DNA from: Stegostoma tigrinum
Lineage: Eukaryota
Assembly (NCBI RefSeq): GCF_030684315.1
Contig: NC_081361.1
Location: forward strand, 74,819,614 to 74,883,613
Reading direction: 5' to 3'
DNA length: 64,000 bases
The notes under the pieces are model-generated. The model saw nothing but the letters and a program-made list of their open reading frames with translations, made no database searches and was not told the DNA's origin. Below are positions 1,424-40,159 of this stretch, in pieces. Made by a program: the position numbers and the translations under genes. The stretch's first letter is position 1. The number at the start of each line of letters is the position of its first letter.

Positions 1424-2055
1424 TGACATTTGTTGTGGCTGTCCGTAGTGTTTGCACGTGTGGGTAGGTATGCATATCTGGACTGGGAGGGTGCCCTGTT
1501 GTGAACAAAAATAAAAGGAGCTGCAGTCGACCATACAGATCCCCTAGCCTGCTCTGCCATTCAGTATGATCATGACTGATCATTGACTTTAACTCAACTT
1601 TCCTGTCCTTCTTCCCCTTTGTCGCCAGATTTCCTGGAAGACCAAAGATTTCTCTATTGCAGCTTAAATATTTTCAACAATTGAGCTCTCACAACAATCC
1701 AGGATAGAAAATTCCAAAGGTGCACAGCGCTCTGAGTGAAGAAATTTCTCTTCATATCAGGCCGAAGCCATTGTTTTTCCTGAGACTGTACTTCCATGTA
1801 TTATATTCCTCGGCCAGGGGAAACACTCTGTTTTGTGGCTTGAGGGGTGGTGTTCTGTCTATGTGGCTGGGTATTTTTCTATCTGACAGGTGCTCCTGAA
1901 CAGCTGTCTAATCCTGTCACAGAGCTGTGAAAGGGGAACTGGAACCATAAAAGTATTCTCCTCTTCTGACTGACACAAATGAAGGCAGACTCTGTGGGAT
2001 TACTGTGTGGGAATGATAAGATGCCAATTTATGCCTTGAATGCTGAGAACGTAAG

Positions 2056-3000
2056 AACATGAGAACATAGGAGCAGGCTGTGTAGCCCCTCAATCTGGCT
2101 CTGCCATTCAATAAGATCATGGCTGGTCTCTTCGTGCACTCAGGTCCACTCACCCATCTGTTCACCACAACTGTTAATCCCCTTACTGTTCAAAAATCCA
2201 TCTATCTTTGCCTTAAAAACATTCAATGAAGTAGCCTCAACTGCTTCACTGGGCAGGGAATTCCACAGATTCACAATCCTTTGGATGAAGAAGTTCCTCC
2301 TCAACTCAGTCCTAAATCTACTCCCCCTTATTTTGAGGCTATGCCCTCTTGTTCTCGTTTCACCTGCCAGTAAAAACATCCTCCCTGCTTCTATCTTATT
2401 TATTCCCTTCATAATTTTGTATGTTTCTATAGATCCCCCTTATTCTTCTAAATTCCAATGAATATAATCCCAGTCTACTCAATCTTTCCTCATAAGGCAA
2501 CCCTCACAACTCCAGAATCAACCTAGAGAACCTCCTCTGCGCCCAACTGCAGTGCCAGTACATCCTTCCTCACGTAAGGAGACCAAAACTGTACATAGTT
2601 CTCCAGGTTGGGTCTCACCAGCACCCAATACAGATGCAGCATAACCTTGTTTTTAAACTCCATCCCACTTGCAACGAAGGGCAATATTCCATTTGCCTTC
2701 TTAATTACCTGCTGCTCCTGCAAACCGATGTTTGGTGACTCATGCACAAGGACACCCAGGTCTCTCTGCACAGCCATTTGCTGTAATTCTTCACTATTTA
2801 AACAATAGCCCATTTTGCTGTCATTCCTACCAAAACGGATGACCTCACATTTACCAAACATTGTACTCCATCTGCCAGACCCTTGCACACTCACTAAACC
2901 TATCTCACTAAACCTCTGCAGACTTTGTGTCCTCTACACACTTTGCTGTACCAGTCATCTTAATGCTATCTGTGAACTTCGACACACAATACTTGGTCCC
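2056..3000 (-). mobile_element. CR1-clade LINE 3' fragment (ORF2 C-terminus and tail)
   Basis: Minus-strand peptides RDLGVLVH, LVRPNLENYVQFWSPY, TRGHSLKI..RRNFFIQRIVNLWNSLP are typical CR1 ORF2. Confidence 0.9.
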
Positions 3001-3649
3001 CAATTCTAAAGTCTGATCTTCTAAACCCTAAAATTCTAACCTTGACCACGTTGTCAGCAAAGACTGGTAAAGTGTACCACTAAGAACTAGGAAGGAGATT
3101 TTTTTTTCTCAATTCTACTATTTTCAACAAAACTGTAGACAAAGTTCTGGTGACTTTGGTGATGATGATCAAACAGAAGTAACAAACAGCCCCTGTTTTA
3201 AGCTGACTAGGCTCACAGCATAGTTACAGTCAATAAAGAGCATGGATTTTCAGTCTAGGCTGGATTTACCCATTATGCTATTTGTTTTTCTACAGTTCCT
3301 TCCTAGTGGAAGAATATCTATTGCAATTTTGCATAGCTGTAGCCAGTGACAACTAGATTAAAAGTCACACTTTAAGAAAGGCTCGAGAAGTAAAGAGCAA
3401 ATTATACAGGCAGGAAGATTCTGGTGGGTGGAGGGATAGATGGCTGAAGGCATTGATAGTAAAATAAAATAAACAAAAAACTGTGGATGCTGGAGATCTG
3501 GAATGAAGACAGAAACTCTGCTGTACTGATGAAGAGTTACCAGACTCAAAATATTAACTCTGCTTTCTCCCCACAGTTGTTGTCACACTTACTGAGTTTT
3601 GCCAGCAATTTCTGTTTTTGCATTGATGCTAAAGGTGAGATACACAATA

Positions 3650-4130
3650 CTGGTCACCTTGCCATAGGAAGGATGTTACTAAACTGGAAAGAGTGTAGAA
3701 AAGATTCACAAGGATATTACCAAGACTCTAAGGTTTGAGTTATAAGGAGAGGCTGGATAGGTTAGGACTGTGTTCCCTGGAACGTAAGAGGCTGAGGTTT
3801 ATACAATTGCGAGGGGTGTGGATAGAATGAATAGCCAAGGTGTTTTCCCCATACTGAGGGAATCAAAACTAGAGGGTGTAGGTTTAACGTGAGAGAGGAA
3901 AGATTTAAAAGGGACCCGAGGGGCAACTGTTTCACATGGGGTGGTGCATATGTGGAACAAGCTGCCGGAGGAAGTGTAGCGGTGAGTACAATTACAATAT
4001 TTAAAATACATTTGGACAGGTACATGGATAGGAGATGTTTAGAGGGTTACAGGCCAAACGCAGGCAAATGGTATTAATTCAGTTCAGGAATCCTGGCTGG
4101 CATGGAGTTGGGCCAGAGGGTCTGTTTCTG
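3650..4130 (+). mobile_element. CR1-clade LINE 3' fragment
   Basis: Decayed ORF2 end (ERFKRDPRGNCFT, ITIFKIHLDRYMD). Confidence 0.8.
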
Positions 4131-4540
4131 TTCTGAGAAAGTGTCACCAGAGTTGAAACAGATGCTGCCAGACCTGCGGAGCTTTTCCAGCAACTTTGAT
4201 TCTGTCTTGTATTCCTTTATGACTCTTAAGCTGAAATTGGGAACAGAAGTTTAAGAAGTGTGGGTTGGGGTCTATGCTCATACGAATTGAAGAAAATGGA
4301 GATAGGGAGCAAAACCAGGACTGAAGATGTTAAAATTGGAGATGTTGGGAAATTTGAAGTAAGTGCTGATCAGCAAGGACAGGAGCATGGGTGAAGAACA
4401 TTATTATCAGAGTGGTGTGAATGGTTCAAAATTGCAAAGTTTAAAGTAAAGAGGACTTAAATCCAATGACAGATGTGAAAGGATTAATGTCTTATTCAGT
4501 TACATAATTGACATTTTTATGTATGATGTGTCCCCCCCAG

Positions 4541-4693
4541 ATTAATATAAAACTGTACACACAAGACCTTGAGCGGGTGAAGATGGGTCACAGTGGAGTG
4601 CCAGACAGGCAGCTGCTAAACAAAGCAAAAGCCGATTTAGATTTAATATTGTCTGTGTGCCCCTGTCTAAAGACATACCTGGATATGGGACAG
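4541..4693 (+). CDS. TTC22: TTC22 penultimate coding exon
   Basis: cccccag|ATT...CAG|gtgagt; 153 bp; INIKLYTQDLERVKMGHSGVPDRQLLNKAKADLDLILSVCPCLKTYLDMGQ; in phase with both neighbouring exons. Confidence 0.93.
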
Positions 4694-5342
4694 GTGAGTA
4701 CTGTGTGATTGAGCTTTGTCAAGGCTTGCTTTTCTGTCAGTCAGGTAGCATAATGTTTATGTTCTTGGACTCCTCTTTCACTGAACCTCAGTATGTCCTG
4801 TGGCATTAGTGGGTCAATCTGACCAGAGGGAAAAATCTAACTGACTCTGACCTCCCACTAACCTACCTGTCAAAGATGCATTTGTCCATGAAAACTTTGA
4901 AAGAAGTAACCACCCATACTTCTGTTGCAATAGCATCCCATTTACCTATAGAGGACACTTTTTGGGTGGCATTAATATGTGTTAAATGGAATGAAGTCAA
5001 ATTGGATCCAGAAGCTCAAAACTGGGCATCCATGAAGTGATGTGAGCCATCATCATCAGCAATGGAACCTTATTCAAGTGCAATCTACAAACTCAGCATG
5101 TCCCTTAAACCAGGAGAGCAACCCTTGATCAATAAGGAGTGCACAGGAGTGTATGTGACTAGATGTTAGCGTTGAAACAATTAACTGACAATGGAAGCTG
5201 CACCAATCTTCAATCATAGGGAGTGCAATAAGTCAGTGGAAAAGAAGCTTGAAGCATTTGCAACCGGTCTGAAGTATCGTGTGAAATATTCATCTTGGCC
5301 TCCTCCAGAATCTTCAGCATTATTGATGCCAGTCATGGGCCA

Positions 5343-5518
5343 GAGTCAAAAAATGCAGAGCTGGAAAAGTACAGCAGGTCAGAAGAAGACTTTCCTGAAG
5401 AAGGGTTCCGACCTGAAACATTGACTTTCCTACTCCCTGGATGCTGTCTAACTTGCTGTGCTTTTGCAGCTCCACATTTTTTTACTCTGGCTTTTAGCAT
5501 CTGCAGTCCTTTCTGTCT
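5343..5518. mobile_element. Older palindromic PLE-terminus mini-element with degenerate hammerhead motif
   Basis: Inverted arms; ctgaagaagggttccgacctgaaacatt at ~5396; TSD ccagtcatg(g/a)gcca at 5329-5342 and 5519-5532. Confidence 0.7.
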
Positions 5519-6976
5519 CCAGTCATGAGCCAATTTGATTCATCCGCATGATACAACAGAACAGCACTGAATGCAACAAGAGTGAAGTGCCCTGAATACA
5601 ATCCAGCTCTAGTGTGAATGCTTTGTGCTGTAGAACAATCCCATACTCAAGATATTCCAATAGATCTAATAGAGGTACCCATTCTACCAGGACAATTGTT
5701 TTGATGTCAATAGAATGCAAATATAGGGGGCTAGAAAAATGTGTTCAGCCTAATCTTACCTTGATCCCACAGGTTGAGGTAGATTCAGATCTAGTCTAAA
5801 ACCTTGGAGTGCTTTTGACTCTGAGGTCTTGAGCACAAATTTGAAGTAGTGATAGAAAATGCCTTTGAAAGTAATCATCGGCCATCCAGCAGAAAAATAA
5901 TGTTTGGTACACCACATGGTCAGCGAACTGTAGATTAATATAGCTTCTGTAGCCCCCTTTTTAATTTGTAATGATTCAAGTTAACAGACGAGCTTCTGTT
6001 TAAACAGGCTTAATGTTGGTTTCATGTGAATTATTACAGAAGGTTCTGATGGGTTAAAGTTATTAATCAATAACTTTATCAATATTAGTCAAGTACCAGG
6101 ATTAAAACAAGTACAGATAAAGCAAAAACCATTCTTGTAAGAAGAAAATCCCAGTCAATCGAGAGGCCCATTATTTGAGTTTCTTGTTGAAGAGATTAAG
6201 ACTTAAAGTTATATCCAGTAGCTATGGTAGATTCTGTAATTGGATAGTTGGTATTTTCTTATCAATTAGATTTACAAAGGACAGCTCACTCTTTTTCTCC
6301 CTCTGTCTAGATAGAAACTTTCTGTCTAGGGAGCTTATGTTTTTGAGTCATTCATGGTTGACAAGCTAGAATTGTCACAGTTATCAAGTGACCTATGCAA
6401 AACTGAGTCCATATAATGCAGTAACATTCCATGGACAACTGTTCTCCTACTTGTGGTTCTTTTTTTTTGTAAAAGATATTTTTGAATCAACATGTTCAAA
6501 GATGTTGTTACATACCTCTGGAGCAGTTGGGACTTGAACCTGAGCCTCTTTGCCCAGAGGTAGGAACTTTTTTAGTTAAATTACCACCAATCACTCAAAT
6601 AACCCACGAAACAATAACAGTAACAAAACATACGGGAAAGTAGGAAGGGAGGGTGGGTACTAAATCAAAGTATAGTTGTAGGGGGAAATTGTGGTTCTAT
6701 GGTTTATTTGTGGTCAACACCCAATTTACATTGTTGCAATGATTCATCAATGAGTACTGTTAACTCCGAGAAATGAGTTTTTACATATTTGCATGTGTTT
6801 CTGTGTGATCCATGTAGAACTTCTGGTTGTACAGTCAGGTGACTTGTAGTAGTAACATTTTTAGCTTCTTGCCCAGTTGTACTCGGTTAATTTTTTTTTA
6901 CAGTAAGTGATATAGCCTTTAACAGACTTTCTCTTTAAAAAATGGCCCGTGGCTACACATTTGTAAAACGGTTCAT

Positions 6977-7310: not shown

Positions 7311-7488
7311 TAAAAAAGTTACCACAGATATCCGCTGTATATTAAACTGATGACTCATAAACTATTGAAGCTCTTTTGGATTATTTTCTAGATGTGTAAA
7401 TTTGTTTGTAATTTTGAAATGCACACATGCCCTTGTACAATTTCATTGTTCCGTTTGGAGTAGTAACCGATTTCTGTATTGCTGACAG

Positions 7489-7986
7489 GTTTGTTACTAC
7501 ATGGGGGTTGATGCCGTGCAGGAACTCCAGTTGGTGGATGAAAATGCACTAAACAATGCTTTAGTTTTCTTTGCCAAAGCCATGGAGCTTGACTTGGGAG
7601 ACACGCTGCCAGAGATCCAGTTGCTGAGAGGGAAGTGTTTACAGGTCAAAGGAGAGGAACACAATGCAGTTGAGTGCTTCAAACAAGCAATTGAACTTGA
7701 TGATGTAGGATCCCAGTACTCTGAGACATTCCGCTGCCTCATTGAATCACTATTGTCTCTGTTTATCCAGGAGAAATCCAGTGAGGAAATGGTTATCCGT
7801 GAGGTTGAAATTTGGGTAGAAAAAGCTGAGGCAAAGTATCAAATGGAGAGAGTCCGACGGGAACTACGCTCAATTTGTCGAAACCATATGCCCAAGATTT
7901 TGAAACTTGCCAGAGCTATGATCATATCTGGGAAGCTGCGAATAGTAAAATTACTTCTGGAAACAATGAATCCTGATCACACCTGA
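7489..7986 (+). CDS. TTC22: TTC22 terminal coding exon
   Basis: gctgacag|GTT; VCYYMGVDAVQELQLVDENALNNALVFFAKA...LPEIQLLRGKCL...LLLETMNPDHT*, matches recalled TTC22 C-terminus. Confidence 0.95.
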   Translation, partial: VCYYMGVDAVQELQLVDENALNNALVFFAKAMELDLGDTLPEIQLLRGKCLQVKGEEHNAVECFKQAIELDDVGSQYSETFRCLIESLLSLFIQEKSSEEMVIREVEIWVEKAEAKYQMERVRRELRSICRNHMPKILKLARAMIISGKLRIVKLLLETMNPDHT

Positions 7987-9682
7987 GTTAGCAAGATTTT
8001 GGTTAAGGAGTGAGTTATTTAAACACTTCCGTTATTTGTCTTTAAAAACCCACTACTTAAGGGTCTCTGTTGATAAACTTTGCCTTTTGTGTGGTGTTTA
8101 ATCAGATGGGACAAATGTTTAATGATTAGAGGCTAAATTGCAATCCAATCTCATCTTTTCACCATCATTTTGCCTTTTTTTTTGGCTGAGCTGCAAAAAG
8201 GTGTACTTGGTGTAAAATACCAAGTAGGTGACAACAAAACTTCGATTGGAATATGATTCTTCAAAAGAGATTTGTTCAACTGCTATTGATCAGTCACCAG
8301 TATCTCCTAACCATATTATGCTTACAATGTTTTTAGATACACTGTTGTCCGGGAATGATCAATGTGACCTTGATAGCACCTTCCTGACGAATGTCGGATC
8401 TTTCTGGTTTTCTGGAATTCCGTGGCAGAAATATTTAATGTATAAGTCGTCAGTAAAATGCTATTTTACTTTCAAACACTGGTATATCAGGCATTGTATT
8501 GGTTAATTGAAGGATAATGCACAGCGTACTTTATCCAACAATGTGACTCAATGTAACACCAATGGAACATCTACCACAATGCCAGACCATTTCCTACACA
8601 AGCCACCTCGGAATCTGTTTGAGAGAAATAATTGATTCAGAATGAGTATGTGCTGAGCTTTAAGTAGTTTTGTGCTGCAGTCTGCATCAAGACTGCTCTA
8701 GACTCATTCTGCTCTGACCACTATAACTGGCAGAGAACAGTTTTATTGCAGTTCGTGGAGATGAAAGAGGGTTACCTTAATCAGACATCACCAACTTCGT
8801 CGTCTCACTGTTTAATAGCATGTGTTGCATTAATATGCTATTAACATAATAGCTGGGATCTCACACTGGTAATTCTGATTGGTCTGTTGTTCATTGATTT
8901 TTTTTTAAAATTCTAAACTTTTCATACCCCGCAGAATCACAGCTAACTCATAAGACTGTCCCTTTTCTGGTTTATTAGGTTTAAACTGCTTACTTGCAAA
9001 GCAGTAATTGTATGAAATTTAAAATTATAGCAATGTGACTGAGTGAGTGAGTTGGTGCACTTATTGTGCTCAATTAATTTTATGATAAAGTGATTCAAAC
9101 ACCAGGACCAGATACTTGTGAAAATAAAGGCTTGAGGCTAACTCTTCTTCAAGCACAGGGAATTATTGATCCAGTGAAAATGTACCCGGCTTCCCCAGGT
9201 GTGATGATCTGCTTCAGTGACAGCTTTGCTGACAAAGTGGGTCCTTGAGACAGCTTCTGCCGTGTCTTCGGCGACACGGTGGTCCTGCCTGAGATTTGGC
9301 AAGTTTGATGTCAGATTTCTGCAGTGATGGAGAATGTGATTCCTCTTTTCTCCTCAACCTTGGGAACCCATGAGCTGTGAAGTGAACAAAGGAGGACTTT
9401 GTCTTCGTTTCTTTTAATATACAATTTCTGTTATTCATATTGGTGCTGGAGTATGGTGACTTAAACGCTCCTCATTGGTTTTGTTTTGTAAAAATAGAGG
9501 TGACAATAAATTACTATTCTGTTCAAAAGCCAAATACAATGGATGCTAGAAAATCTGAAGTAAGAGTGCTGTAGAAACTCAGCAGGTTAGAAGCAACTCA
9601 ACAGGAAGAGTTAATGTTTTGGACCATATGCTACTAAATAGTGAGATGGGGTCCTGGGTGATGACTGATTCAACATAACTGT

Positions 9683-9790
9683 CACAATCCCCACAGGGTC
9701 CACACACAACTTCCCACTTCTGTCTTTGACTGGCCCTGTTCCTACCCTAGTCATCCTCTTATTCATCACATCCCTATAGAAAGCTTTAGG
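9683..9790 (-). mobile_element. Short CR1 ORF2 fragment abutting the ERV leader
   Basis: KAFYRDVMNKRMTRVGTGPVKDRSGKLCVDP resembles the CR1 inter-domain motif. Confidence 0.65.
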
Positions 9791-10071
9791 GACAGGTAAC
9801 TGGAAAAGAGATCGGGGAGGATAGAGTCCCCCGGTGACCGGGGTTGAGTCCCTGAGTCTGGCAATTGGGAAAAGGGAGGGGGTTAGTATAAGATTGGGAA
9901 GGTATAAAAAGTGTTCAGACCTAGGTATAGAATAGGTACAGTGTCTGTCTGTCTCAACCACCCTGCCTTAGACCGGTTGTTAAGAGGGGAAATCCCCCAC
10001 GCGAAGGTCAGGACCCTGAAGTTGGTGTTGAGACTAAGGACACTGGTGCAGTACATAGAAACAAGTAAAAA

Positions 10072-11590
10072 GTGAAAGCGCTGGATAAGTCGGGTGTCGG
10101 AACCCCTTTACATTGGTTATGCTGGGATGACCCCGAAAATGAAGTACAGTACAGACGTCTGTTGGCATGCCTAAACAAAAAATTGGGAAATGAGAATTCG
10201 CCATTAGGGGGAACTTGGGATACAGATCTATGTACTAAAGCAGAAGAGGCACTGGAAAGGGTTAATGCCATTCTGGAGAAAGAGAGCTGAAGAGCTGACT
10301 GAAAAATCAAAACTGGCCAGTTGGGTGGATAATGCACATAGGAAAGGGATCAGTGCCTGTGATAATGAGGGGAAACCTAAAACTTGGGAAGTTTTAAAAT
10401 TGCAGTGTGAGGATCATGAGATGAAAGAAAGGGAAAGAGTTAAACAAGAAAGGCAGATGCGAGAACAACGAGACAAAGAAGGGGGATGAGAGCGGCAGGC
10501 CGCGTTGATAGGAAACAAAAAAGTTGGAGGTACCTCCTGACATATCTGGCATGCTGATGTTGCTCCAAATTAATGATAGAGATGAACAAGATGAGGAGGC
10601 CTTGGGAAGGCACCCCTTTGCCCCATCGGGACCACTACCCCTCGACAACCCTACCCGTCCTTGGCCAACCTACATCTGCAGGCACCCCAACGCTGCCATC
10701 AGTCCCAGCAATCGCCCGTAGCCCTGTCACCGCCACCGTACACTGACCAAACCAAACCTCCTGCTATAGAATCTCCAAGCCCTTCAGTAATCAGCCCACA
10801 TGAATCCCCTGACAAACCCGCAGCTTGTACAGACCCTATCTCCTGTCGTACTAAATCTAAAACTAATCAGACCATTAGTGGACAAAAGGAGGGACGGCAG
10901 AATTCTTTTAAAACCCATGAGAAGCCTGGGAAAACATAAGTCCCGTGTGCAGTTCAGTAGACCCTCTAGCACCTGTTTAGTGTTTCCTAGTGATTCTACA
11001 AGTAGCGAAGGGTATGACAGTCCCGATTCACAGGCAGAGGATCGTGAATCTGAGGACAGAGCTTGGAAGAGACCCTTGGATAACCGTCCCCTAAAGAAGG
11101 ACCCCCGTAAGAAAAATCACCGGCAATTTCCTAATCACATGGTCCCTCACCCAAAGCCAACACAAGTGGGTCAAAATACAATCAGAGATAATAGGAACTG
11201 CAGATGCTGGAGAATCCAAGATAATAAAATGTGAGGCTGGATGAACACAGCAGGCCAAGCAGCATCTCAGGAGCACAAAAGGTGACGTTTCGGGCCTAGA
11301 CCCTTCATCAGAGAGGGGGACCATTTATTCCAGAACCCTCACCGCAACCCCTCTCTGATGAAGGGTCTAGGCCCGAAACATCAGCTTTTGTGCTCCTGAG
11401 ATGCTGCTTGGCCTGCTGTGTTCATCCAGCCTCACATTTTATTATCTTAGGTCAAAATACAATGCAGGTCTATACCCCTTGGAAGCCACAAGATAAGTGT
11501 TTAATTATGTCAAGGGCCCCTGATCGAAAGACTAACCCAGAAGATTTTATAGATTACATCCTGGGCACTATTCAAATACATCAAGCCACC
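10072..11590 (+). pseudogene. gag: ERV gag remnant (MA, Pro-rich region with PPPY late domain, CA N-terminus)
   Basis: TPL...PLGGTWD (MA-like), PPPY at 10730-10741, QVYTPWKPQD...NPEDFIDYILGTIQIHQAT (CA-like); interrupted at 11183-11449 and truncated at ~11590. Confidence 0.8.
11183..11449. mobile_element. Palindromic Neptune-PLE terminus mini-element inserted in gag
   Basis: Two inverted copies of the PLE terminus; perfect 14-bp TSD ggtcaaaatacaat (11169-11182, 11450-11463). Confidence 0.9.
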
Positions 11591-11619
11591 CCCCCCAAGA
11601 CCTCATTAGCCTGTGCTGC

Positions 11620-11908
11620 GTCTTTGCTGCGCTCTCCAGCCCTCAGGGTCAGTTCCAGGAACTTGACCTCCCTCAACCTTATCTGTGCCTTCTTAGGGTT
11701 TATCTGAATCAACCCGCTCTTGCACAGGAGTTGTAACAACTCACTCAGTAGGGGGCCATGTTCCTCACTATTGCCTGTGAACAACAGGATGTCGTCCACG
11801 TACTGTACAAGCCTGTGTGGCTCACTGAAATCTTTTAAACAGTCTGCCATACACTGGTGGAAAATGCTGGGGCTATTATGGAAACCCTGTGGCAGACAAC
11901 TCCATGTG
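11620..11908 (-). pseudogene. pol: Retroviral reverse transcriptase fragment, downstream part, antisense to the ERV
   Basis: TWSCLPQGFHNSPSIFHQ...LVQYVDDILL...INPKKAQI..EVKFL. Confidence 0.9.
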
Positions 11909-14081
11909 CCAGACGCCAACTCTCCGACACCACCACCTACCACCCCCTCGATCATGACCCCACCCCCGAGCACCAAACCATCATCTCCAACACCATTCAT
12001 GACCTCATCACCTCAGGGGACCTCCCACCCACAGCCTCCAACCTCATTGTTCCCCAACCCCCGCACGGCCCGTTTCTATCTCCTTCCCAAAATCCACAAA
12101 CCTGCCTGCCCTGGTCGACCAATCGTCTCAGCCTGCTCCTGCCCCACCGAACTCATCTCCACCTATCTGGGCTCCATTTTCTCCCCTTTGGTCCAGGAAC
12201 TCCCCACCTACATCCGTGACACCACCCACGCCCTCCACCTCCTCCAGGACTTCCAATTCCCTGGCCCCCTACACCTCATCTTCACCATGGACGTCCAGTC
12301 CCTATACACCTGCATTCCGCATGCAGATGGCCTCAAGGCCCTCTGCTTCTTCCTGTCCCGCAGGCCCGACCAGTTCCCCTCCACCGACACCCTCATCCGC
12401 CTAGCCGAACTCGTCCTCACCCTCAACAACTTCTCTTTTGACTCCTCCCACTTCCTACAGACTAAGCGGGTGGCCATGGGCACCCGCATGGGCCCCAGCT
12501 ATGCCTGCCTCTTTGTAGGTTACGTAGAACAGTCCCTCTTCCGCACCTACACAGGCCCCAAACCCCACCTCTTCCTCTGGTACATTGATGACTGTATCGG
12601 CGCCGCCTCTTGCTCCCCAGAGGAGCTCGAACAGTTCATCCACTTCACCAACACCTTCCACCCCAACCTTCAGTTCACCTGGGCCATCTCCAGCACATCC
12701 CTCACCTTCATGGACCTCTCAGTCTCCATCTCAGGCAACTAGCTTGTAACTGATGTCCATTTCAAGCTCACCGAATCCCACAGCTACCTAGAATACACCT
12801 CCTCCCACCTGCCCTCCTGCAAAAATTCCATCCCCATTCCCAATTCCTCCGCCTCCACCGCATCTGCTCCCACGATGAGGCATTCCACTCCCGCACATCC
12901 CAGATGTCCAAGTTCTTCAAGGACTGCAACTTTCCCCCCACAGTGGTCGAGAACGCCCTTGACTGCATCTCCCGCAACACGTCCCTCACAGCCCGCCCCC
13001 GCCTCAACCGCCCAAAGAGGATCCCCCTCGTTCTCACACACCACCCCACCAACCTCCGGATACAACGCATCATCCGCCGACACTTCCGCCATCTACAATC
13101 CGACCCCACCACCCAAGACATTTTTCCATCCCCACCCCTGTCTGCTTTCCGGAGAGACCACTCTCTCCGTGACTCCCTTGTTCGCTCCACACTGCCCTCC
13201 AACCCCACCACACCCGGCACCTTCCCCTGCAACTGCAGGAAATGCTACACTTGCCCCCACACCTCCCCCCTCACCCTTATCCCAGGCCCCAAGATGACAT
13301 TCCACATTAAGCAGAGGTTCACCTGCACATATGCCAATGTGGTATATTGCATCCACTGTACCCGGTGTGGCTTCCTCTACATTGGGGAAACCAAGCAGAG
13401 GCTTGGAGACCGCTTTGCAGAACACCTCCGCTCAGTTCGCAACAAACTACTGCACCTCCCAGTCGCAAACCATTTCCACTCCCCCTCCCATTCTTTAGAC
13501 GACATGTCCATCATGGGCCTCCTGCAGTGCCACAATGATGCCACCCGAAGGTTGCAGGAACAGCAACTCATATTCCGCCTGGGAACCCTGCAGCCTAATG
13601 GTATCAATGTGGACTTCACCAGTTTCAAAATCTCCCCTTCCCCAACTGCATCCCTAAACCAGCCCAGTACGTCCCCTCCCCCCACTGCACCACACAACCA
13701 GCCCAGCCCTTCCCCTCCACCCACTGCATCCCAAAACCAGTCCAACCTGTCTCCGCCTCCCTAATCTGTTCTTCCTCTCACCCATCCCTTCCTTCCACCC
13801 CAAGCCGCACCCCCATCTACCTACTAACCTCATCCCACCTCCTTGACCTGTCCGTCTTTCCTGGACTGACCTATCCCCTCCCTACCTCCCCACCTATACT
13901 CTCCTCTCCACCTATCTTCTTTTCTCCCCATCTTCGGTCCGCCTCCCCCTCTCTCCCTATTTATTCCAGAATCCTCTCCCCATCCCCCTCTCTGATGAAG
14001 GGTCTAGGCCCGAAACGTCAGCTTTTGTGCTCCTGAGATGCTGCTTGGCCTGCTGTGTTCATTCAGCCTCACATTTTGTTG
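11909..14081 (+). mobile_element. 5'-truncated Penelope-like retroelement, Neptune type (RT + GIY-YIG), disrupted ORF
   Basis: FYLLPKIHK..PGRPIVS, MDVQSLYTCIPH, AMGTRMGPSYA, YIDD, Cys-rich linker CNCRKCYTC, NVVYCIHC..CGFLYIGETKQRLGDRFAEH; frameshifts and a stop at 12740; 8-bp TSD tccatgtg (11901-11908, 14082-14089). Confidence 0.95.
13990..14021 (+). ncRNA. Minimal type I hammerhead ribozyme motif (family A) in PLE terminus
   Basis: CU-CUGAUGA-A-GGGU(CUAG)GCCC-GAAAC-GUC-AG: intact core, stem II, palindromic ACGU stem III; activity untested. Confidence 0.8.
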
Positions 14082-14180
14082 TCCATGTGTACTGTTGTCT
14101 TTTAAAAGTAAATGCGAATTTGTACTGGTCCTGCTGAACCGGGATAGACCAGAAACCATTCGAGATATCCAGCACCGTGA
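14082..14180 (-). pseudogene. pol: Retroviral reverse transcriptase fragment, upstream part (motif A)
   Basis: Manual minus-strand translation FTVLDISNGFWSIPVQQDQYKFAFTFKRQQYTW; joins in frame to 11908 once the PLE and one TSD copy are removed. Confidence 0.9.
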
Positions 14181-14575
14181 AATTCCCACCCTCCCTGCTT
14201 TAAGGCAGGAGAGCGCCTTTCCATCAATGGCACGTGCCATTGTTTTGAAATTCACAACCACTTATCCAAGTAATTGATATCTCTTGAAACTGCTGGCTGA
14301 GGTTTCTCCCACAGCTGTGGCTCCGCTGGGTCCTAGGGCCCATCATCCATTCATTCATTCCCGTTTTGAGGAAGGGTTGCTGGACCTGAAACATTAACTC
14401 TTTTGTTTTAAGAATTTCTGATTTTTGTGTGTGGTAAATTTGGTTAATTTTTTAGCATGTATGATTTGGTCAATTTACACTATAATTCTTGACTGGTAGT
14501 TGACTGGTGGTGATGTACACACACATGGTAATTTTTTAAACCAGCTAGAGTTTTCTTCCCCCTCCTCCCCTCCTG

Positions 14576-14606
<31 letters not shown>
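14576..14606. repeat. (CT)n microsatellite
   Basis: Direct observation. Confidence 0.95.
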
Positions 14607-14607
<1 letters not shown>

Positions 14608-15450
14608 AGTTCAGGACACCATGGCAACGTTAGTGCCCATACTGCCTCCCTGCTTCAGTTTGGCAAATGGGATATTATGATACTGTGCAAATGAGACATG
14701 ACACAGAGCAGAGATTCCTCCTGTGTACTAACCCTGTTTCCCTTCCTCCTAACTGATAGCAATCATCATGTGGAGTGGGTATTGAAGCTGTCCTACCCCG
14801 TGTGTGGATCTGCCTCACTACCACTAGCATCATAGCTGCCATGGGTCAGTCTACGCTCCTTGGTGCTCCCCTCAAGTCCACAAGGTGAGGGAGAGAATGC
14901 TCCTATTCTGAACCCAATCCCCTGCCCCATCCCAGTGTTCACTGTTTACTACTTGTAAATGGACAGTCATCCTACTCTTGTCTGCTGCTTCTGCATACAC
15001 CAGGGCTACAATGAAGCCACGTGATTAAAGCCAGCCAATCCTGAACCCCCAATATGTGCTGTAGCATTTCTACTGTGTTTGTCTGATTTGTCAGCTGTTA
15101 ATTTGATTGCTTTCCTTTGTACTTTACAGCTCTGTTACGGCAGTAATTGTGTTGCAGGCCTTCACTGACAACACCGCCCCGTCCCCGCCCTGCTATTCCT
15201 CAATAGTGAACATAGGACTTAGAGCAGGAGTAGGCTGTTCAGTCTTGCAAATGTGCTCTGCCATTCACTAAGATCATGGCTGATCTCATTGTGGTTTCAA
15301 CCCCACATTCCTGTTTCTTCCTCTTGTGTATGTGCTGCTATTCTTCAGATATCAAGGACATAACTGTCGCAGTCTACTACATCACTTACACACACACAAT
15401 GTCATACTGAAATGACAGGTTTATAGTAGGCCCTTTAAACTTGAATTAAA

Positions 15451-17315
15451 ATGACTGGTTGCCTACTGCTCCACTCGCCTGGACACTGTAGCTCAGGGAT
15501 TACCCCCTTGTTCCCAGATTCTCCCCGCGATTTATTCCTTATCTCTTCCTGCTCCACTATTAACCCAGCCACATTTCTGAGCAAACCCCCAGACGAGCTC
15601 TTAGAACCCCCACATGACTGCCTGCTAAGGAACCAATTTCTAACCTCTAGCCCAGACCTTACTGATGCCCCACTCCCTTCTCCGGACCTTATCCTGTTTG
15701 TTGATGACAGTTCCTCCATATCCCCCTCTCTGGATATGCGATTGTTGATGCCGTCTCTACATTAGAATCGACGGCATCTGAGCCCCCGGTATCTGCTCAG
15801 AAGGCAGAACTTGTTGCCCTGACCCGGGCCTGCATTCTAGCCACAGGGAGGTCAGCAAATATTTATACCGACTCTCGGCATGCCTTTGGAGTCTCCCACG
15901 ACTTCTGGTCTCAGCGGGAATTTTTAACGTCCTCAGGTACACCCATCCAGAATTCCCTGTCTGTTAAAAACCTTCTCCAGGCAATCCTCCTCCCTAAACA
16001 ATTGGCTATCATCAAATGCGCTGCCCATGCCTCCGATGATTCTATCATTACTCGGGGCAATGCTCGGGCTGATCTGGCTGCTAAACTGGCTGCTGCAGAC
16101 CAAATTTTTATTATACCCTCTATGAACAAGCAGGCGGTAAATCGCATGCCTTCAGACAAGACGGGCATGCCAGATATGGTCACTGTTCGGCACTTACAGG
16201 GGGATGCCCCTGCTTCTGAAAAGGATATTTGGAAGGCGCATGGATGTTTGCATTCTGCGTCCTCAGGCCTTTGGGTTACCCCAGTCGGCCAAGTGTATAT
16301 ACCTGATGCTTTGTTACCTCTGCTTGTTGACTGTCTGCATTCTGACACCTACCTTGGCAAGGAGGGAATGAGTGGTATTATGCTCCATACCTGGTGGCAC
16401 CCCAGACTGACTGAGGCAGCCCAGTCTTGTATAGCATCTTGTCTCACATGCCAGCAAAACAATGTGTGTCAGGGGGTGAGATGCTCACCAGGAAAAACCC
16501 CCTTGCCAGGTGGACTGTTTGAATGCATTCAGCTAGATTTTATTGAATTACTGCATGTAAACTGTTATAAATATTGTCTTGTCATTGTAGACATATTCAG
16601 TAGGTGGATAGAGGCTTTCCCAACAACAAAGCCTCAACAGTAGTAAAACTATCATTAACTGAAATAATACCGAGGTTTGGAGTGCCGCGACAAATTAGTT
16701 CGGACAACTGCCCTCACTTTGTAGGGAAGATTACGTTACACATCCAACAGCAATTCCACTGAGCCTACCACCCCCAGCTGGCAGGGATAGTGGAAAGAGC
16801 TAATGGAACACTTAAAACTAAACTAACCAAGTTGACATTAGAGAGCGGCATTAATTGGCTAAAGGTTTTGCCACTAGCCTTGTATCGCATGTGAATAACA
16901 CCCCATTTTACTACTGGGCTCTCAGCAGTAGAAATAGTCTATGGCTGACCCAGCAGAACAACATGGGATGCCAATACCAGCCCGCCCACCCACGCAAATT
17001 GACCTAAATGTGATGGGAGAAGAAATGCAAAGGTACTTCCGACAACTAACATCATCTCTAAAGTTTCTCCATTCGCAGGTGAAGCGCGCCTTTGGACCAC
17101 CTCCGCTGACACCGGACCAAGACCTCAAGATTCAGGATTGGTCTTCGTGGCCGCAGATTGGAGATTTTGTACATGCCCGGGACTGGGATTGTCCCAAGCT
17201 TGGACCAAGGTGGAAAGGACCGTATCAAGTGCTTCTTCAGACTCCAACAGCTCTTAAAGCTAAAGGACAGAATCGCTGGATCCATCTAAGTGACTGCAAA
17301 CGATTTCCTCATTAG
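15451..17315 (+). pseudogene. pol: ERV pol remnant: tether, RNase H and integrase
   Basis: [106 protein letters not shown]. Confidence 0.93.
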
Positions 17316-18780
17316 CTTGCAATTAACCATTGCACTGAGTATTATTCTGCCCATGCATGGCCAGCAGGACAATCTGTTTTATAAAATACACATCCAGCTG
17401 CACAGGAATCAGACAGCATGTTACCCACTAGCACGGTCTGGAGAAGCGTTATTTGTGGCAACACCTGCCTGGAACCCTAGTCAGCTTTATGAAGTAGAGT
17501 ATTCCGGTAAACCTTGCCGAGGGGAGAGGGGAACTTGGACGGGGGGTGTGCAGGGTAGGTGTGTGGTTAATGGCCCCTCTGATTGTGGGGACACTAGACT
17601 TCAGGCATGCCATAAATGTACAGCAGACAGCTATGATAACTACTAGAACAACTAACCCATGACGCAAGTATGAGCCTCAAGAACTGCCCATAAGCCATCC
17701 TAACAAGTCCTTGCCAGTTCAGGGTCCCTCTCTGTACAAATCCCAACAGCTAGTTTTGCTTTAATCGAACTGGGACTTGTTGTGTGCATGCTTTAGTCAC
17801 TAATCACCCCCATAACGTTTCCTGGCCCCATCGGTGTGTAACGAGAAATTGCACCACTAGAGGAGGAATGTTGAACTGCTCCTGGTTAGAATCCAAGCCA
17901 TAATTGTGACCCTGGGCATACAGTGGACTTGTGAGGATGGCAATAGCACCCATGTAAAAACGGACTATGGGTCATTTCCATTTAACTCCGCAAACTTCCA
18001 TCCATATAAGGGTCAGTCCTCCTGGCATAGCTATCAAGAAATATGTGAGTCTGTTACCTGCTACCGGGCTAAAAAGGGATTCGTTTTCCTCCTTAACGGG
18101 ACCTTCACAACTGCCTCTCCAACTCTGATGGTGCTGTTTGCTGTTGGGACCATTGGGCCTCTCACAGTCCCTTGTCCCCAACAAGCACAAACTCAATGGC
18201 GAATTGTCACATGCTTCCTGAGCCGTGAGTTTTGCGCTGCATGGCAGAACCCAATTGCCTTGGGCTCTTCCTTGGGATACGACTTCCTGGGAACTGTTAG
18301 CTTGGGAGGCTCCCCAGGGGTGGTGGCCGCAAAAAAAATCCAAGTTACCTTATATGTGGACTCACCACCCTAGGAAACAGCACAATGATGGCATTGGAGG
18401 CAGTCAACCAAGAATTAACTGAACTTCGGCTCTATGCTCAGCAAAGCCGGTAGGCAGTAGACTATCAACTGGCTCAGCATTGAGGATTATGCACTATTAT
18501 AGGGGACAACCAAGTCACCAACGAGTCCTATAACATTACCCAGGCTATTCAAGCCATACAGGGACAGTTGGAGCGATACAGAATGGGACCCTGAACTGGG
18601 GAGGGCTTGTTAGGATGGCTTATGGGTGGTTCTTGGGGCTCATACTTGCTTCATGGGTTAGTTGTTCTAGTAGTTATCATAGCTGTCTGCTGTACATTTA
18701 TGGCATGCCTGAACCCTTGCTGCAGATTTGTGTTTGACAGGCTAGCAGCTCCCTTCTCGGCCCGATATAGGTTATCATGA
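17290..18780 (+). pseudogene. env: ERV env remnant (SU and TM)
   Basis: Hydrophobic signal-like start, Cys-rich SU, Gly-rich fusion peptide, heptad ALEAVNQELTELRLYA, ISD-like QQSR*AVDYQLAQH*GLCTIIG, TM helix GLVVLVVIIAVCCTFMACL. Confidence 0.85.
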
Positions 18781-18798
18781 AATGATAAAATGAGGGAA

Positions 18799-19529
18799 TG
18801 AGATGTTGTTGGGATAACATCCTACTGATTTCTATACTTCTATAAATTAATGTCCTTTATCTGCCTACACATAGGTATGCAGGCACTGCCTTAAAGCTTC
18901 CTGCCCAGCTAGAAATTAGGTGTAAGACTGTGTAACTCATTACCTTCCTACACATCGGTATGCAGACACTGCCTTATGCTTCCTGTCCGAATAGAATTAG
19001 AGTTATACTGTCTCAAATAAGGTTAAGTGAGGAACATTTGTAAAGGTGTGAGACTTCTGAAGGATGTAACTTCTGTCTCTGACAAAGGGGCCAGGGCACT
19101 GACTTTGTTCAAGCCAGACACATCGGCAACTTGAAATTACATTCTGTCACGTTAACAACTTGAAATCGCCTCCTGCCATTAGCAGTCGCTTCACGAACGA
19201 TCGATACTATATCCTGGTCTTTTATGTTCTTGATGAAATAATTGTTTTGTCTCCTGTCTTTGTCTGTTGTAGTAATTGTTTCATGTATCATGTCATTGTG
19301 AGATGTAAAATTGTTTTATGTATTATGCACTTAGTAAAGTATAAAAAGCACGGACTGTCCGCTGCTCAGGGAGAATTACTTACGAGACTCTGCACTCCGT
19401 GCCAGGTTGAGTACAGTGATTATCCACAGCTTGTACGTGCTCTGTAATAAAGCATTTGTGTTTTTCTAAACAGGTCAGTGTCTTGTTATTGCATCAAGTC
19501 CATGAGGGTCTCCGAAAACGAACCTGACA
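18799..19529 (+). repeat. ERV 3' LTR
   Basis: Purine tract aaaatgagggaa then TG; two imperfect direct repeats 83 bp apart (18864, 18947); TATAAAA 19340; AATAAA 19446; ends ctgaCA; no second LTR to confirm the boundaries. Confidence 0.7.
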
Positions 19530-21000
19530 GGTAGAAGGCCAGCTCTGCAAAAGACCAGCTTCTGTTGGAGCAAATGAATAGGACTGCATCTATTTTGGGC
19601 TTAAAAAATAAATGTTTTTTTCTGTTGACATGAAAGCAGCACAAAATCGCTAACTGAAAATTCTGCTCATTCCTGTCAGCGCCATCTAACCCTTTATTTT
19701 GAATAATGAACTTCAGTCAGAATCTCCTCTGTCCTATAGGGAGAGCCCAATTTTTCAAGATTCCTTTGAATTTATTTCCTAATAGACTGGCCCTAAACAG
19801 CCTTGCCAAAATGCACGCAGCACATGTAACTGCATTTTAACAGAACAACAATTATGTTTTCAGCTTTGTATTCCATACTTCTTCCCACTGATACCAGTAT
19901 CCTATTAACAAAGCATTGGGCAATTTTGTGAGGCATGATAAAGGTTTCAAAAGATGTTATCTTCCTCTAATAAACACTATACTTACTGCCTTCCTTTTAA
20001 ATTTTATTCACAATCAATATTTCACATTCACCAACATGTTGTTCTTAATATCCGTTCAAATATACACCCAAACTGCTTAAGAAAAACATCAAATCTATTT
20101 GGAATCTGCCTAAAGCTCATCAAAAGCCATTCGAACAATAACTATTAAAATGGAAAGGTTTAGGTTTCTGAGACTGAAAGCTTGAATATTATTTCCTGTC
20201 TTGTGTTCAGGAAAATGAGACATGCTAAATAACCAAGCCACTAACATAATCCATAAAGAAACTGACGTGAAAACAATCTGGATAGATGATATTTATCACT
20301 CTGAGTAAACTTAAGGAGCAGAGGGGGTTAGAGTTTGGATTTAGAAAATAACAACAAGGTGGATGCAGGTGAACAGAGAGCCAGGGAATCTTTAAACTAA
20401 ATGCATGAACGCTGTTTGAACTGTATGTATTTAAGATATGCAAATAATTTAGAAACTTGTAAGATGGACAGTAGGTTTGGAAGGTAAATCTAAATGATTA
20501 ATTATCAAGCTGATCGCTTGATGGTTTGTGTGGGCAATTCTGATTATTCTAGTGGCTTTAGTATTCTATCCACAGTGTTTAACCAAGCAAAAGGGAAACA
20601 TGCTTATAGTTTAGAAATGGTTAGGATTGCCAAAATTTATGTATGAGAGGTCGATAAGGATTTTTTTCTAAGGTGGGAAGCCATTCAAGAAATTGGTGCA
20701 TAACCTTTACAAAACCTTAAGAAACTTATTGAATATTGTTAGGAATAGCTCTATTTCGCTCTTGTGACGAAAGCTTCCTGGGTTGACAATCACAGAATAT
20801 TGTATGCTGTTATCTTTGCAAACAACCTGTCTCTAACACAAGCTGTGAAACAAGATTTTCCCAAACACAGTAAGGGGAAAGGGACAGTTAGGTTTTATGA
20901 TCTGTATGTAAACCAACTGACTGAGTAGAAGTTAACCAGGATGCCCTCAGAAGCAGTAAGCCATGTGATGACTTTATGGTCTTCCAACAAAATTAGGCAT

Positions 21001-23580: not shown

Positions 23581-25022
23581 ACTACTGTATAAACTTATAA
23601 AGAAAGCTCTTGCATCCCCTTTCAAATTAGGAGACCAAAACTAGACACAGTACTCCAGATGTAATCTCATCAACACTCTATACAGCTGTAAAGAAAACCC
23701 CCTACTTTTATATATTATTCTTATTACAATAAGCACCAATGCTTTATTTGTTTTCTGAATTACTTTCTGAAACTGTATACTGGCTTTCTGTGACTCCTTC
23801 GGTACCATTGAGTTCTGCAATCTATCTCCATTTAACTAAAACACCACTTTTCTATTCTGCCTGCCAGTGTGGAAGTTTGCATTTCTCTGTGTTATGCTTT
23901 GAATTTTTGCCCAGTCTCTTAATGCTTTGCAGCCTATAGCTCCTTTAACAACTAGCTTTCCTAGCTATATTCTAAGCAAAATTAACTTGTGTCATCCCAT
24001 CATCAAAGTCATTGATGTAGATTGTAAACAGTTGAGGGCCAAGCAATTATTCCTGTGGTACTCCACTAACCACAGTCTGCCAGTCTGAAAAAAACTAATT
24101 TATCCTACTTTGTTTCCTGTCTAACAACCATTCCTTTTTCACATTACAATGCTGTGCATGCATCACAACCACTTACTTTGTATCACAGCTTGTGATGTGA
24201 CCTTTCACAAAAGACTCTTAGAAATCTCAGCATGCCATGTTTACAAGTTCCCTTTTATCTGCTGTGCTTGTTACTTCTTCAATTTACTCTAGCACAATAG
24301 TTGAACATGATTTATTTTTCACAGAACCATGTTGATTCTGCCAAATTCTGTTATGATTTTCAAATATCCTTCTATAATCATAGCACTGGATTCCAGCAAG
24401 TGAAGTAGTTGCATCATTGGGTTATTGTCCTATATATTCCTGTATTTTGTTTCTTTCCTCCTTATTGTTGCATTTGCTGTTTTCCAGTTTACTGGTATTT
24501 TGCTAGAACCTAAGAAGTTTGGGAGATAATTACATTTTACTGTTAGCTCTGCAGGAATTTCTAAGAATCCAGGTCGGAGGTGATAAAATGGCGACCCCAA
24601 CACTCAGTCCAGCTTAGAATGTGGCGATCAATCCTGGTGGATGTAGCTAGACTTAGTTAACTGTGTGTGAAGCCATACTCTGAGTTATAGTAACCAAAAT
24701 ATGCTGGACCTCCAGGAAAGTAATCCAGTTGTGTGATCTTTTCCTGCTTTTGGTGACACCATGAGGAATGCTTAATTGTTATTAGATGCTTAATTGTGAC
24801 CTTAGATAGATGAATATGCTTTGCATCTCCCATCTTAATAAACATTGAAAATGAAAATACATGACTAGGACGCATCTAGTTTACTTGCTATAATGCATTC
24901 AGTCCACAGTGCTTTCCTTTCTTAATTGTTGTATGGAATTTAAAAATGTACTTTCTTGAGGAGGATGTGAACTTACACACCTTGCTTTCCTTTCTAGAAC
25001 TGATTATTTCTCGGATGCACCA

Positions 25023-26435
25023 ATGGAGATGGCAGTCTATTCATATTCAAGACAATTGTTCAACAGACTGTTCTTTGACAACTTACATTTACACAAGTCC
25101 CATTATCACCACAGTAGGTCCAAGCATATATTACTGTCTCGTCTCTTTCAGCCAATGAATCTCCGTGAGGACAGAACTATTGGGGCTGGCCGGTCCAGCG
25201 AGATTACCTGCAAGAGCCAAAGACTGATGCTTCAGGCGGGTCTTATTCAGCCAGCCAATACAGGCTGTTTTCACTATCTGCCATATACAGTTCGAGCCAT
25301 GGAGAAACTTGTTCGTGTGATTGATAAGGAAATGCAGTCCATTGGGGGTCAAAAGGTGAATATGCCCAGCCTTACCTCAGCAAGTCTGTGGAAGATCAGT
25401 GAACGTTGGGACCTTCTGGGGAAGGAACTATTCAGATTGAAGGATAGGCATAACATGGAATACTGTTTAAGTCCAACCCATGAGGAAGCAGTGACGGAGC
25501 TCATTGCCATGCAGGGTAATCTCTCATACAGACAGCTACCTTTGATGCTTTACCAAGTGACAAGAAAGTTCCGAGATGAGCCAAAGCCACGTTTCGGTTT
25601 GCTCCGTGGACGAGAGTTCTACATGAAGGATATGTACACGTTTGATGTCTCGGAAGAAGCTGCCATGGAGACCTATGACCTTATTTCCCAAGCTTATTGT
25701 CGCATCTTTGACCAGTTGGGATTGCAGTTTGTAAAGGTGCAGGCAGACACTGGCAGCATTGGTGGTAAGGTGTCTCACGAGTTCCAGCTGCCAGCTGACA
25801 TTGGGGAGGATCGCCTTTTAATATGTTCTGACTGCCATTTTGCAGCCAACGTCGAAGCAATGACAGACATTGAAACAAACTGCCCGCAGTGTCATGGAAA
25901 GCTGAAAGAAAGCAAAGGCATTGAGGTGGGACACACTTTTTACCTTGGGACAAAGTATTCAAATATTTTAGGTGCCTCGTATTCCAACACCGAGAATAAG
26001 CCTGTCATAGCCGAAATGGGTTGTTTTGGTCTTGGAGTCACGCGAATACTAGCCGCTGCCATAGAGGTTTTGTCAACGGAAGATGACATTCGCTGGCCGA
26101 GCCTCCTTGCCCCTTACCAAGTTTGCATTGTTCCACCTAAGAAAGGCAGCAAGGAAGAACTGAGCCTAGGTCTATCTGAAACCCTGTATGATACTCTAAT
26201 AGATGCTGTCCCCCAGCTTCGTGGAGAGGTACTCTTGGATGACCGAAGCCACCTGACTATAGGCAAGAGATTGAAAGATGCCAGTCGTCTGGGTTACCCG
26301 TATGTTGTCGTTGCAGGGAAGAGGGTTTTGGAAAATCCACCTGTTTTTGAAGTCAACTGCCAAAATAATGGGAAAACAGTATTCCTCACGCAAGAAGGTG
26401 TCTTGGACTTTTTGAGAAACGTGAAGATTGCTTAG
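25023..26435 (+). CDS. PARS2: Mitochondrial prolyl-tRNA synthetase, single coding exon, 470 aa
   Basis: Class IIa ProRS motifs (PTHEE, QVTRKFRDEPKPRFGLLRGREFYMKDMY, GIEVGHTFYLG, MGCFGLGVTR), basic transit-like N-terminus; acceptor tttctag at 24997; AATAAA 26766. Confidence 0.97.
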   Translation: MEMAVYSYSRQLFNRLFFDNLHLHKSHYHHSRSKHILLSRLFQPMNLREDRTIGAGRSSEITCKSQRLMLQAGLIQPANTGCFHYLPYTVRAMEKLVRVIDKEMQSIGGQKVNMPSLTSASLWKISERWDLLGKELFRLKDRHNMEYCLSPTHEEAVTELIAMQGNLSYRQLPLMLYQVTRKFRDEPKPRFGLLRGREFYMKDMYTFDVSEEAAMETYDLISQAYCRIFDQLGLQFVKVQADTGSIGGKVSHEFQLPADIGEDRLLICSDCHFAANVEAMTDIETNCPQCHGKLKESKGIEVGHTFYLGTKYSNILGASYSNTENKPVIAEMGCFGLGVTRILAAAIEVLSTEDDIRWPSLLAPYQVCIVPPKKGSKEELSLGLSETLYDTLIDAVPQLRGEVLLDDRSHLTIGKRLKDASRLGYPYVVVAGKRVLENPPVFEVNCQNNGKTVFLTQEGVLDFLRNVKIA

Positions 26436-29050: not shown

Positions 29051-29347
29051 GCGAGTTTTGAGAAGATTTGTAGCTCAGGTTGAGGTTCTGGATGTGAGTT
29101 TGCTCGCTGAGCTGGAAGGTTAGTTTTCAGACGTTTCGTCACCATTCTAGGTAACATCATCAGTGAGCCTCCGACGAAGCGCTGGTGTTATGTCCCGCTT
29201 TCTAACCCAAGGAAACCTAACCAGATAAATAGAAAGCGGGACATAACACCAGCGCTTCGTCGGAGGCTCACTGATGATGTTACCTAGAATGGTGACGAAA
29301 CATCTGAAAACTAACCTTCCAGCTCAGCGAGCAAACTCACATCCAGA
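29051..29347. mobile_element. Palindromic Penelope/Poseidon-type PLE mini-element (family B)
   Basis: 118-bp arms 29087-29204 and 29230-29347 with one mismatch; same terminus as the 38911-40065 element; TSD gccc(a/t)tgaaaaga (29038-29050, 29348-29360). Confidence 0.9.
29127..29166 (-). ncRNA. Minimal type I hammerhead ribozyme motif (family B)
   Basis: UCA-CUGAUGA-U-GUUACC(UAGAAU)GGUGAC-GAAAC-GUC-UGA; mirror copy on + at 29268-29307 has GUC>AUC. Confidence 0.8.
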
Positions 29348-38740: not shown

Positions 38741-38910
38741 TAGGTAATGATGAACCTCTCTTTCCTACTGTCATCCATTTTTCCTTCTTTTTATTGAGGA
38801 AAAAAAATAATTTCTTGAAAAGATTGATCATTTAATAGACTCCATGTTTAATTATTAACATTAATGCTGCATTATGAAATGGAGGTGGGTGTTGTGAAAC
38901 TGGTATCTCA

Positions 38911-40065: not shown

Positions 40066-40159
40066 ACTGGCATCTCAGTACGGTTACTTGATCAGTAAAT
40101 AAAGCTTTGAGAAATGGATTTTCCAGTGATATTAAATGACTGAAGTGTTGTGCTGACAG

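Follow-up and report, generated by a model that had tools for sequence, protein, structure and literature searches.

In the window, i.e. the entire stretch of 64,000 nucleotides of Stegostoma tigrinum DNA analysed here, an endogenous retrovirus (ERV) carries a scrap of retroviral reverse transcriptase (RT) that reads backwards with respect to the rest of the element. Which retroviral lineage did this scrap come from, and how did it get into an ERV whose other genes run in the opposite direction? Six-frame translation revealed about 128 codons of RT on the minus strand, at 11608-14184, split in two by a Penelope insertion. The features of the element, in window coordinates, are as follows.

9800-11168, plus strand: leader and 5' part of gag of a class I ERV, with stop codons and frameshifts (read by eye, boundaries approximate).
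11169-11463, no strand assigned: two Penelope 3' ends, tail to tail, inserted in gag (inverted arms, 14-bp target duplication).
11459-11616, plus strand: start of the capsid domain and end of gag (tblastn match to residues 499-541 of the skate Gag-Pol P0309, 42%, E 1e-7).
11608-11616, no strand assigned: likely 9-nt microhomology where plus-strand gag meets minus-strand RT, suggested by contig ends and protein similarity.
11608-11908, minus strand: RT piece 2, with motif B and YVDD, extending as far as the beginning of the thumb (80% to residues 294-395 of P0302; Pfam RVT_1, E 1.6e-17).
11909-14081, plus strand: Penelope-like element, 5'-truncated, with RT and GIY-YIG (Pfam RVT_1 and GIY-YIG; 8-bp duplication).
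14082-14184, minus strand: RT piece 1, motif A with NGFW and its flank (86% to residues 262-296 of P0302; Pfam RVT_1, E 0.0048).
14185-15415, no strand assigned: non-retroviral, host-like DNA of about 1.2 kb, with short interspersed-repeat pieces and (CT)15 (no family matches; repeats elsewhere in the window).
15416-17312, plus strand: 3' part of pol, comprising tether with further deletions, RNase H and integrase with MLVIN_C, with stop codons and frameshifts (Pfam; 50% to the skate protein P0066).
17290-18782, plus strand: broken env-like gene (by position; hydrophobic C-terminal piece by eye; weak heptad match to PF22307, E 0.005).
17600-17736, minus strand: inverted copy of the 3' part of the element's own env, inside env (137 nt, 93%, 128/137, to 18577-18713).
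18799-19531, plus strand: likely 3' LTR (by eye: purine tract, TG start, AATAAA, CA end).

The match of the scrap to retroviral RT is far above the chance level. Its two pieces occupy consecutive positions of the RVT_1 profile in Pfam, 70-99 (piece 1) and 115-202 (piece 2), and map to adjoining stretches of a single Pol protein, P0302 (residues 262-296 and 294-395, correspondingly), which bears out the reading of about 380 bp that the initial annotation had obtained by removing the Penelope element (380-395 nt). The motifs are DISNGFWSI (A), LPQG (B) and YVDD (C), and the closest named relatives of the window sequences are from a sevengill shark and a skate. The opposite orientation of the RT to gag, integrase and env, proposed at the same time, was also found: both RVT_1 pieces are on the minus strand, and the capsid, RNase H-integrase and (weak) env-like pieces are on the plus strand. 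Being antisense, interrupted and devoid of a start, the scrap would yield no RT protein.

The element at 11909-14081 has the RT and GIY-YIG domains of Penelope-like elements, is bordered by an 8-bp target duplication (11901-11908 and 14082-14089) and is present in very high copy number, its depth being about 1e5-1e6 in the sequencing run X2. In 5, 4 and 5 contigs of three runs, piece 2 runs directly into piece-1 sequence (by-eye comparison), and the Penelope insertion is therefore a secondary, later event in the window copy. The tail-to-tail Penelope ends in gag have arms at 11218-11318 and 11348-11448, which are 98% identical and form a palindrome with 101-bp arms; a 14-mer at 11169 is repeated at 11450 as the target duplication of this insertion. 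Rfam miRNA matches at 11283-11383 stayed below threshold and are an effect of this palindrome.

Around the scrap is a dead, broken ERV of class I (epsilon-like) on the plus strand, from which most of the capsid, the protease and the RT are missing. The one gag piece tested (10069-10287) produced no Pfam match, and its Atlas matches were all below 0.82, none of them useful. The capsid similarity was extended to 11616 by eye and with one contig end; in P0309, Gag_p30 lies just downstream of residues 499-541. The plus-strand tblastn matches of P0309 to the window end at residue 541 and restart at 1249, so about 700 codons, comprising the rest of gag, the protease and the RT, have no counterpart in the window. 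The foreign DNA has replaced the middle of the ERV and is not a plain insertion into it. Beyond the replaced part, the integrase has MLVIN_C with E 2.7e-14 (Pfam), and Pfam was silent in four of the five distinct env stretches scanned. The inverted env copy is an observation in its own right, as the relative age of the window copy of the ERV might be gauged from its divergence. LTRs are typically recognised by a TG start, a CA end, AATAAA and a purine tract in front of them. No 5' LTR was found, and the likely 3' LTR has neither a match upstream nor a partner within the window. At the place expected for the 5' LTR, a short minus-strand LINE-like piece (about 9670-9800), which we take to be CR1-like, adjoins the ERV leader. 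Epsilon-like class I ERVs of cartilaginous fish (the family of skate LOC129703191; CmiERV II/III) have the same capsid start, tether, RNase H and MLVIN_C integrase; unlike them, the window copy lacks its own protease, RT and 5' LTR and has a foreign middle.

Apart from the RT scrap, this middle includes the 1.2 kb of host-like DNA, in which none of 21 frames had a Pfam match at E < 0.05; none was found in Rfam and none that was convincing among the fetched proteins. Pieces of it recur elsewhere in the window at 78-85%. The ERV is flanked by a TPR-containing exon (7486-7986) and a single long prolyl-tRNA-synthetase-like ORF (24960-26435; both by Pfam), presumably TTC22 and PARS2, which also adjoin each other in other vertebrates. 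Further along the window, at 28900-29350 and 38900-40070, there are inverted and direct repeats of 100-250 nt with 93-98% identity (I1, I3, I7, I8), which may represent a young mobile element.

Two lineages meet in this element. The RT scrap is 80-86% identical to P0302; the window RNase H-integrase is only 22-37% identical to P0302 and 50% to the skate P0066, whose RT in turn matches the two scrap pieces at 35% and 54% only. P0302 is a full Pol with protease, RT, tether, RNase H and integrase, and is devoid of MLVIN_C. In homology searches, the RT homologues of the scrap made up a distinct group with about 46-81% identity, and P0302 was in the same cluster. Trees were built from 81 and 30 rows for RT and from 44 rows for integrase, hand-picked from about 310-320 candidates for coverage of groups; fish foamy-like sequences were outside all of them. 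The 81-row RT tree placed the scrap inside the P0302/P0162 family (support 100/100), among amphibian and coelacanth Pols and adjoining SnRV. In the integrase tree, the window grouped with P0066 (99/97) within the class I group (94/92), while P0302 was located outside class I and outside the Loki clade as well. The first AU tests held the window row alone with each group and thereby overstate rejection; the later, family-level tests are fairer. A class I origin of the RT scrap was rejected (AU p 0.003-0.004; family-level p 0.004). The RT accordingly does not group within epsilon-like ERVs, a grouping that would have spoken against the initial annotation, and the proposal made there of a second, deeper-branching retroviral lineage is upheld. 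It should be added that P0302, P0162, P0010, P0157 and P0007 belong to a wide assemblage of Pols from sharks, frogs and coelacanth, some of them named 'NYNRIN-like' at source, which combine a gypsy/Loki-like tether with an LPQG-type RT and seem to branch near the base of the canonical retroviruses.

Within this second lineage, the donor family of the scrap is likely SnRV-like, as suggested by sequence comparison with moderate tree support. The scrap and SnRV came together in two of three trees, with support of 84/65 (81 rows) and 46/49, neither marked as strong, and the third tree was open. Constraining the donor family with SnRV cost 0.38 lnL (p 0.48) versus 3.6 for foamy viruses. The window RT was 48% identical to SnRV and 43-60% identical to members of the near clade; for four foamy RTs the values were 33-37%, and for Loki they were 33-37% as well. 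Motif A of SnRV, DISNGFWSI, is the same as in the window (P0048 and L001 were labelled SnRV by this match), and a motif B of LPQGFH type and the Q-Y/F-VDD agree too; yet the P0302 family is just 41% identical to SnRV over the RT. SnRV-like ERVs are represented in the window by the antisense scrap of about 128 codons only, and the donor family was analysed through its Pol (P0302, P0162). As for hosts, in Han 2015 (PMC4422223) the elephant-shark ERV lineage I (CmiERV) clusters with SnRV, and the RT of its scaffold 2 equals the window at 37 of 50 positions from motif A to motif B (hand reading). Xu et al. 2018 name the SnRV-related clade Huo and report it from all major vertebrate lineages. The lineage is thus less notable for a cartilaginous fish than initially claimed, an SnRV-clade elephant-shark ERV with the same motifs (by eye) having been published in 2015. 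The reading of NGFW as a spuma signature did not hold either: the consulted supplement of PMC7947760 has 61 occurrences of NGFW, in rows of Loki, SnRV, ZFERV-2 and foamy viruses, and P0005 pairs NGFW with MLVIN_C, i.e. an MLV-type integrase C-terminus.

Two other donors were weighed against an SnRV-like one. Under the spuma-related origin suggested initially, the scrap would stem from a deep lineage sister to foamy viruses, which would change the label and leave the mechanism the same. Foamy viruses and fish foamy-like ERVs (clade Tu) do share NGFW in motif A with the window; the residues after NGFW, motif B and the spacing before YxDD are unlike the window, and in fish foamy-like rows the differences at motif B and before YxDD were apparent by eye. 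The sister position was not rejected by the AU tests, with p 0.134 for the donor family and 0.176 for the whole near clade held with foamy viruses, and the RT trees that bear on it were calculated without fish foamy-like sequences. Against it, foamy viruses formed their own clade at 100/100 to the exclusion of the window, identity to them was 33-37%, below the values for the near clade (43-60%) and SnRV (48%), and the constraint cost 3.6 log units versus 0.4 for SnRV. A position of the window alone with foamy viruses had AU p 0.005, in a window-row-only test that overstates rejection. In short, a scrap from within the foamy clade was discarded, and the sister position is improbable. A lokiretrovirus RT, the other initial suggestion and potentially the first from a cartilaginous fish, appears hardly credible. 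DxxNGFW is present in many Loki RTs, and the tether of the donor family is gypsy-like and resembles that of Loki by eye; however, motif B of Loki is of xPFG type (mostly CPFG), which is missing from the window with its LPQG, identity is 33-37%, and AU tests largely refuted this origin (p 0.003, 0.045 and 0.002). A PDB sequence search placed MLV RT (E 3e-11) slightly above foamy RT (2e-9) and was not decisive. Scanning metagenomes with P0001 returned five distant loci at 28-30%, which were kept out of all trees, and scans of viral contigs with P0302 and with the junction pattern found nothing. An SnRV-like donor remains the label used below.

To see how the scrap is joined to gag, sequencing runs were compared with the window. 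Eight runs were listed, five of them containing part of the stretch, and four were compared over 11450-11990 with the likeness set at 85; X4 and X5 are one sample, and organism A (run X1), having a small share (0.07), was used for one contig end only. The comparison covered the left junction; the right junction and the 1.2-kb middle lie outside it. One contig match ends at 11616 (24 loose letters) and another at 11608 (7 loose letters), which fits a 9-nt overlap of gag and antisense RT, and by eye the protein similarities of the gag and RT frames both reach into 11608-11616. We infer that these nine nucleotides are probably a microhomology at the join.

Joins of the same kind are present in the contigs of another organism. 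The junction was crossed end to end in 4 of the 32 pieces listed, none with the 31 letters on each side that served as the threshold for a bridge. Two further joints lead from gag (11525-11526) straight to 11608; their depths are 19.5 and 160.5 and their sides 20 and 29 letters. Among the 24 loose ends listed, none was at 11608-11620. Loose ends and pieces outside these listings numbered 261 and 4,809. In run X2, the depths add up to 2,308-4,776 for gag bins and 1,653-6,105 for RT bins, with 2,194 for the junction bin and 967 for the poly-C bin, compared with 16-26 in six long single contigs; such sums over contigs do not amount to copy numbers. The RT depth comes from a small number of deeply covered contigs (5 at 11703), that of gag from a large number (33 at 11496), so part of the RT signal may be due to a separate, intact donor family. 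With moderate confidence, the related organism seems to have about ten or more hybrid copies, with short-sided joins. A sense orientation of the RT in other copies, which would have spoken against the initial annotation, was not seen; the joins in the other runs are antisense, too. We also noted that contigs of X2 include copies devoid of an 81-82-nt gag stretch (11526-11607) with gag joined to 11608, i.e. a second form of the hybrid.

The origin that we consider rather probable is that of a non-autonomous recombinant, a class I ERV that acquired an antisense scrap of SnRV-like RT by template switching of reverse transcriptase and was then recopied. A class I RT would have switched onto a co-packaged RNA reading backwards through an SnRV-like ERV and then back into pol, and the 1.2-kb host-like stretch may have entered in the same event. 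The hybrid would subsequently have been copied in trans by proteins of a helper ERV, to be followed by the Penelope insertions and the loss of the 5' LTR. Rearrangements of the kind expected from RT slips are found elsewhere in the ERV, namely the tether deletions and the inverted env piece. As described by Tan et al. 2016 (PMC5131818), LTR-mediated retrocopies arise by template switching, with replaced ORFs, microsimilarity at 25 of 29 junctions and secondary amplification. The replaced ORF, short overlap, deletions, inversion and apparent secondary copies observed here match such a capture and favour a template switch. Non-autonomous ERVs treated in PMC6466679 include mouse ETn, a small ERV-beta4 group with a non-retroviral middle and IAP 1-delta-1; these and the LTR-mediated retrocopies resemble the present element in their foreign internal sequence, short overlap at the join and apparent secondary copies. 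In contrast to ETn, ERV-beta4 and the LTR-mediated captures, the cargo in the window includes an antisense RT of a distant retroviral lineage, and the window copy is known with a single likely 3' LTR and without paired LTRs. The missing 5' LTR counts against our reading, which presumes an insertion made by integrase for this copy.

The main alternative to template switching assumes the same two lineages and a DNA-level accident after integration, by microhomology repair or replication template switch, with copies made by duplication of the locus. Inversions and short overlaps are also produced by DNA repair. The absence of the 5' LTR and the short-sided contig support of the junction are in line with such an accident, which we nevertheless deem possible at best and, on balance, unlikely: at least two join variants exist, one of them about eightfold deeper than single long contigs; one and the same element contains several separate deletions in its interior plus an inversion; and the copy is positioned between the TPR exon and the prolyl-tRNA synthetase gene with no sign of tandem copies in the 64 kb. 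The initial annotation also offered the inverted RT of a chimeric ERV. Its chimeric nature was confirmed; that the ERV turned round an RT of its own is contradicted by the identities to P0302 and by the integrase tree. The ERV would in that case derive from a virus naturally combining this type of RT with class I RNase H and integrase, for which there is a precedent in the domain replacements known from retrovirus history (PMC7947760), in the other self-inversion of the element and in P0005 with its NGFW and MLVIN_C. However, the closest relatives of the RT, P0302 and P0162, carry RNase H and integrase that are not of class I, P0066, the nearest relative to the ERV itself, shows an RT motif of class I, and the minus strand beside the scrap has neither a protease nor an RT N-terminus, all of which makes an inverted own RT very improbable. 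A join created by assembly error is less plausible still. None of the listed pieces extends over the entire stretch, and the runs did not show the window's own locus; set against this, independent runs have contigs over the same join, and clean target duplications are located nearby.

Taking the hybrid as a template-switch product of the two lineages, its novelty is confined. Both lineages are already known in cartilaginous fish, as recorded for the elephant shark in 2015 (PMC4422223), and the mechanism is known; there is neither a new retroviral lineage nor a new host group here. The unusual part seems to be the cross-clade antisense capture that appears amplified, and no account of this hybrid was found in the literature searched, which leaves out most subscription journals. 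A far more speculative notion, to which we attach little probability, is that of a mobile derivative of an epsilon-like ERV that spread via the shark germline as a putative silencer, its antisense RNA supplying piRNA or siRNA guides against the SnRV-like family. A class I ERV with a non-class-I RT implies that labels based on motif A (NGFW taken as foamy) and RT-based counts of ERVs mislead in fish genomes. Should the amplification of the hybrid be confirmed, RNAs from two remote retroviral clades would have met in one shark particle or germ cell, and the recombinant would have been copied onward as a non-autonomous element, a rare cross-clade case of a known mechanism.
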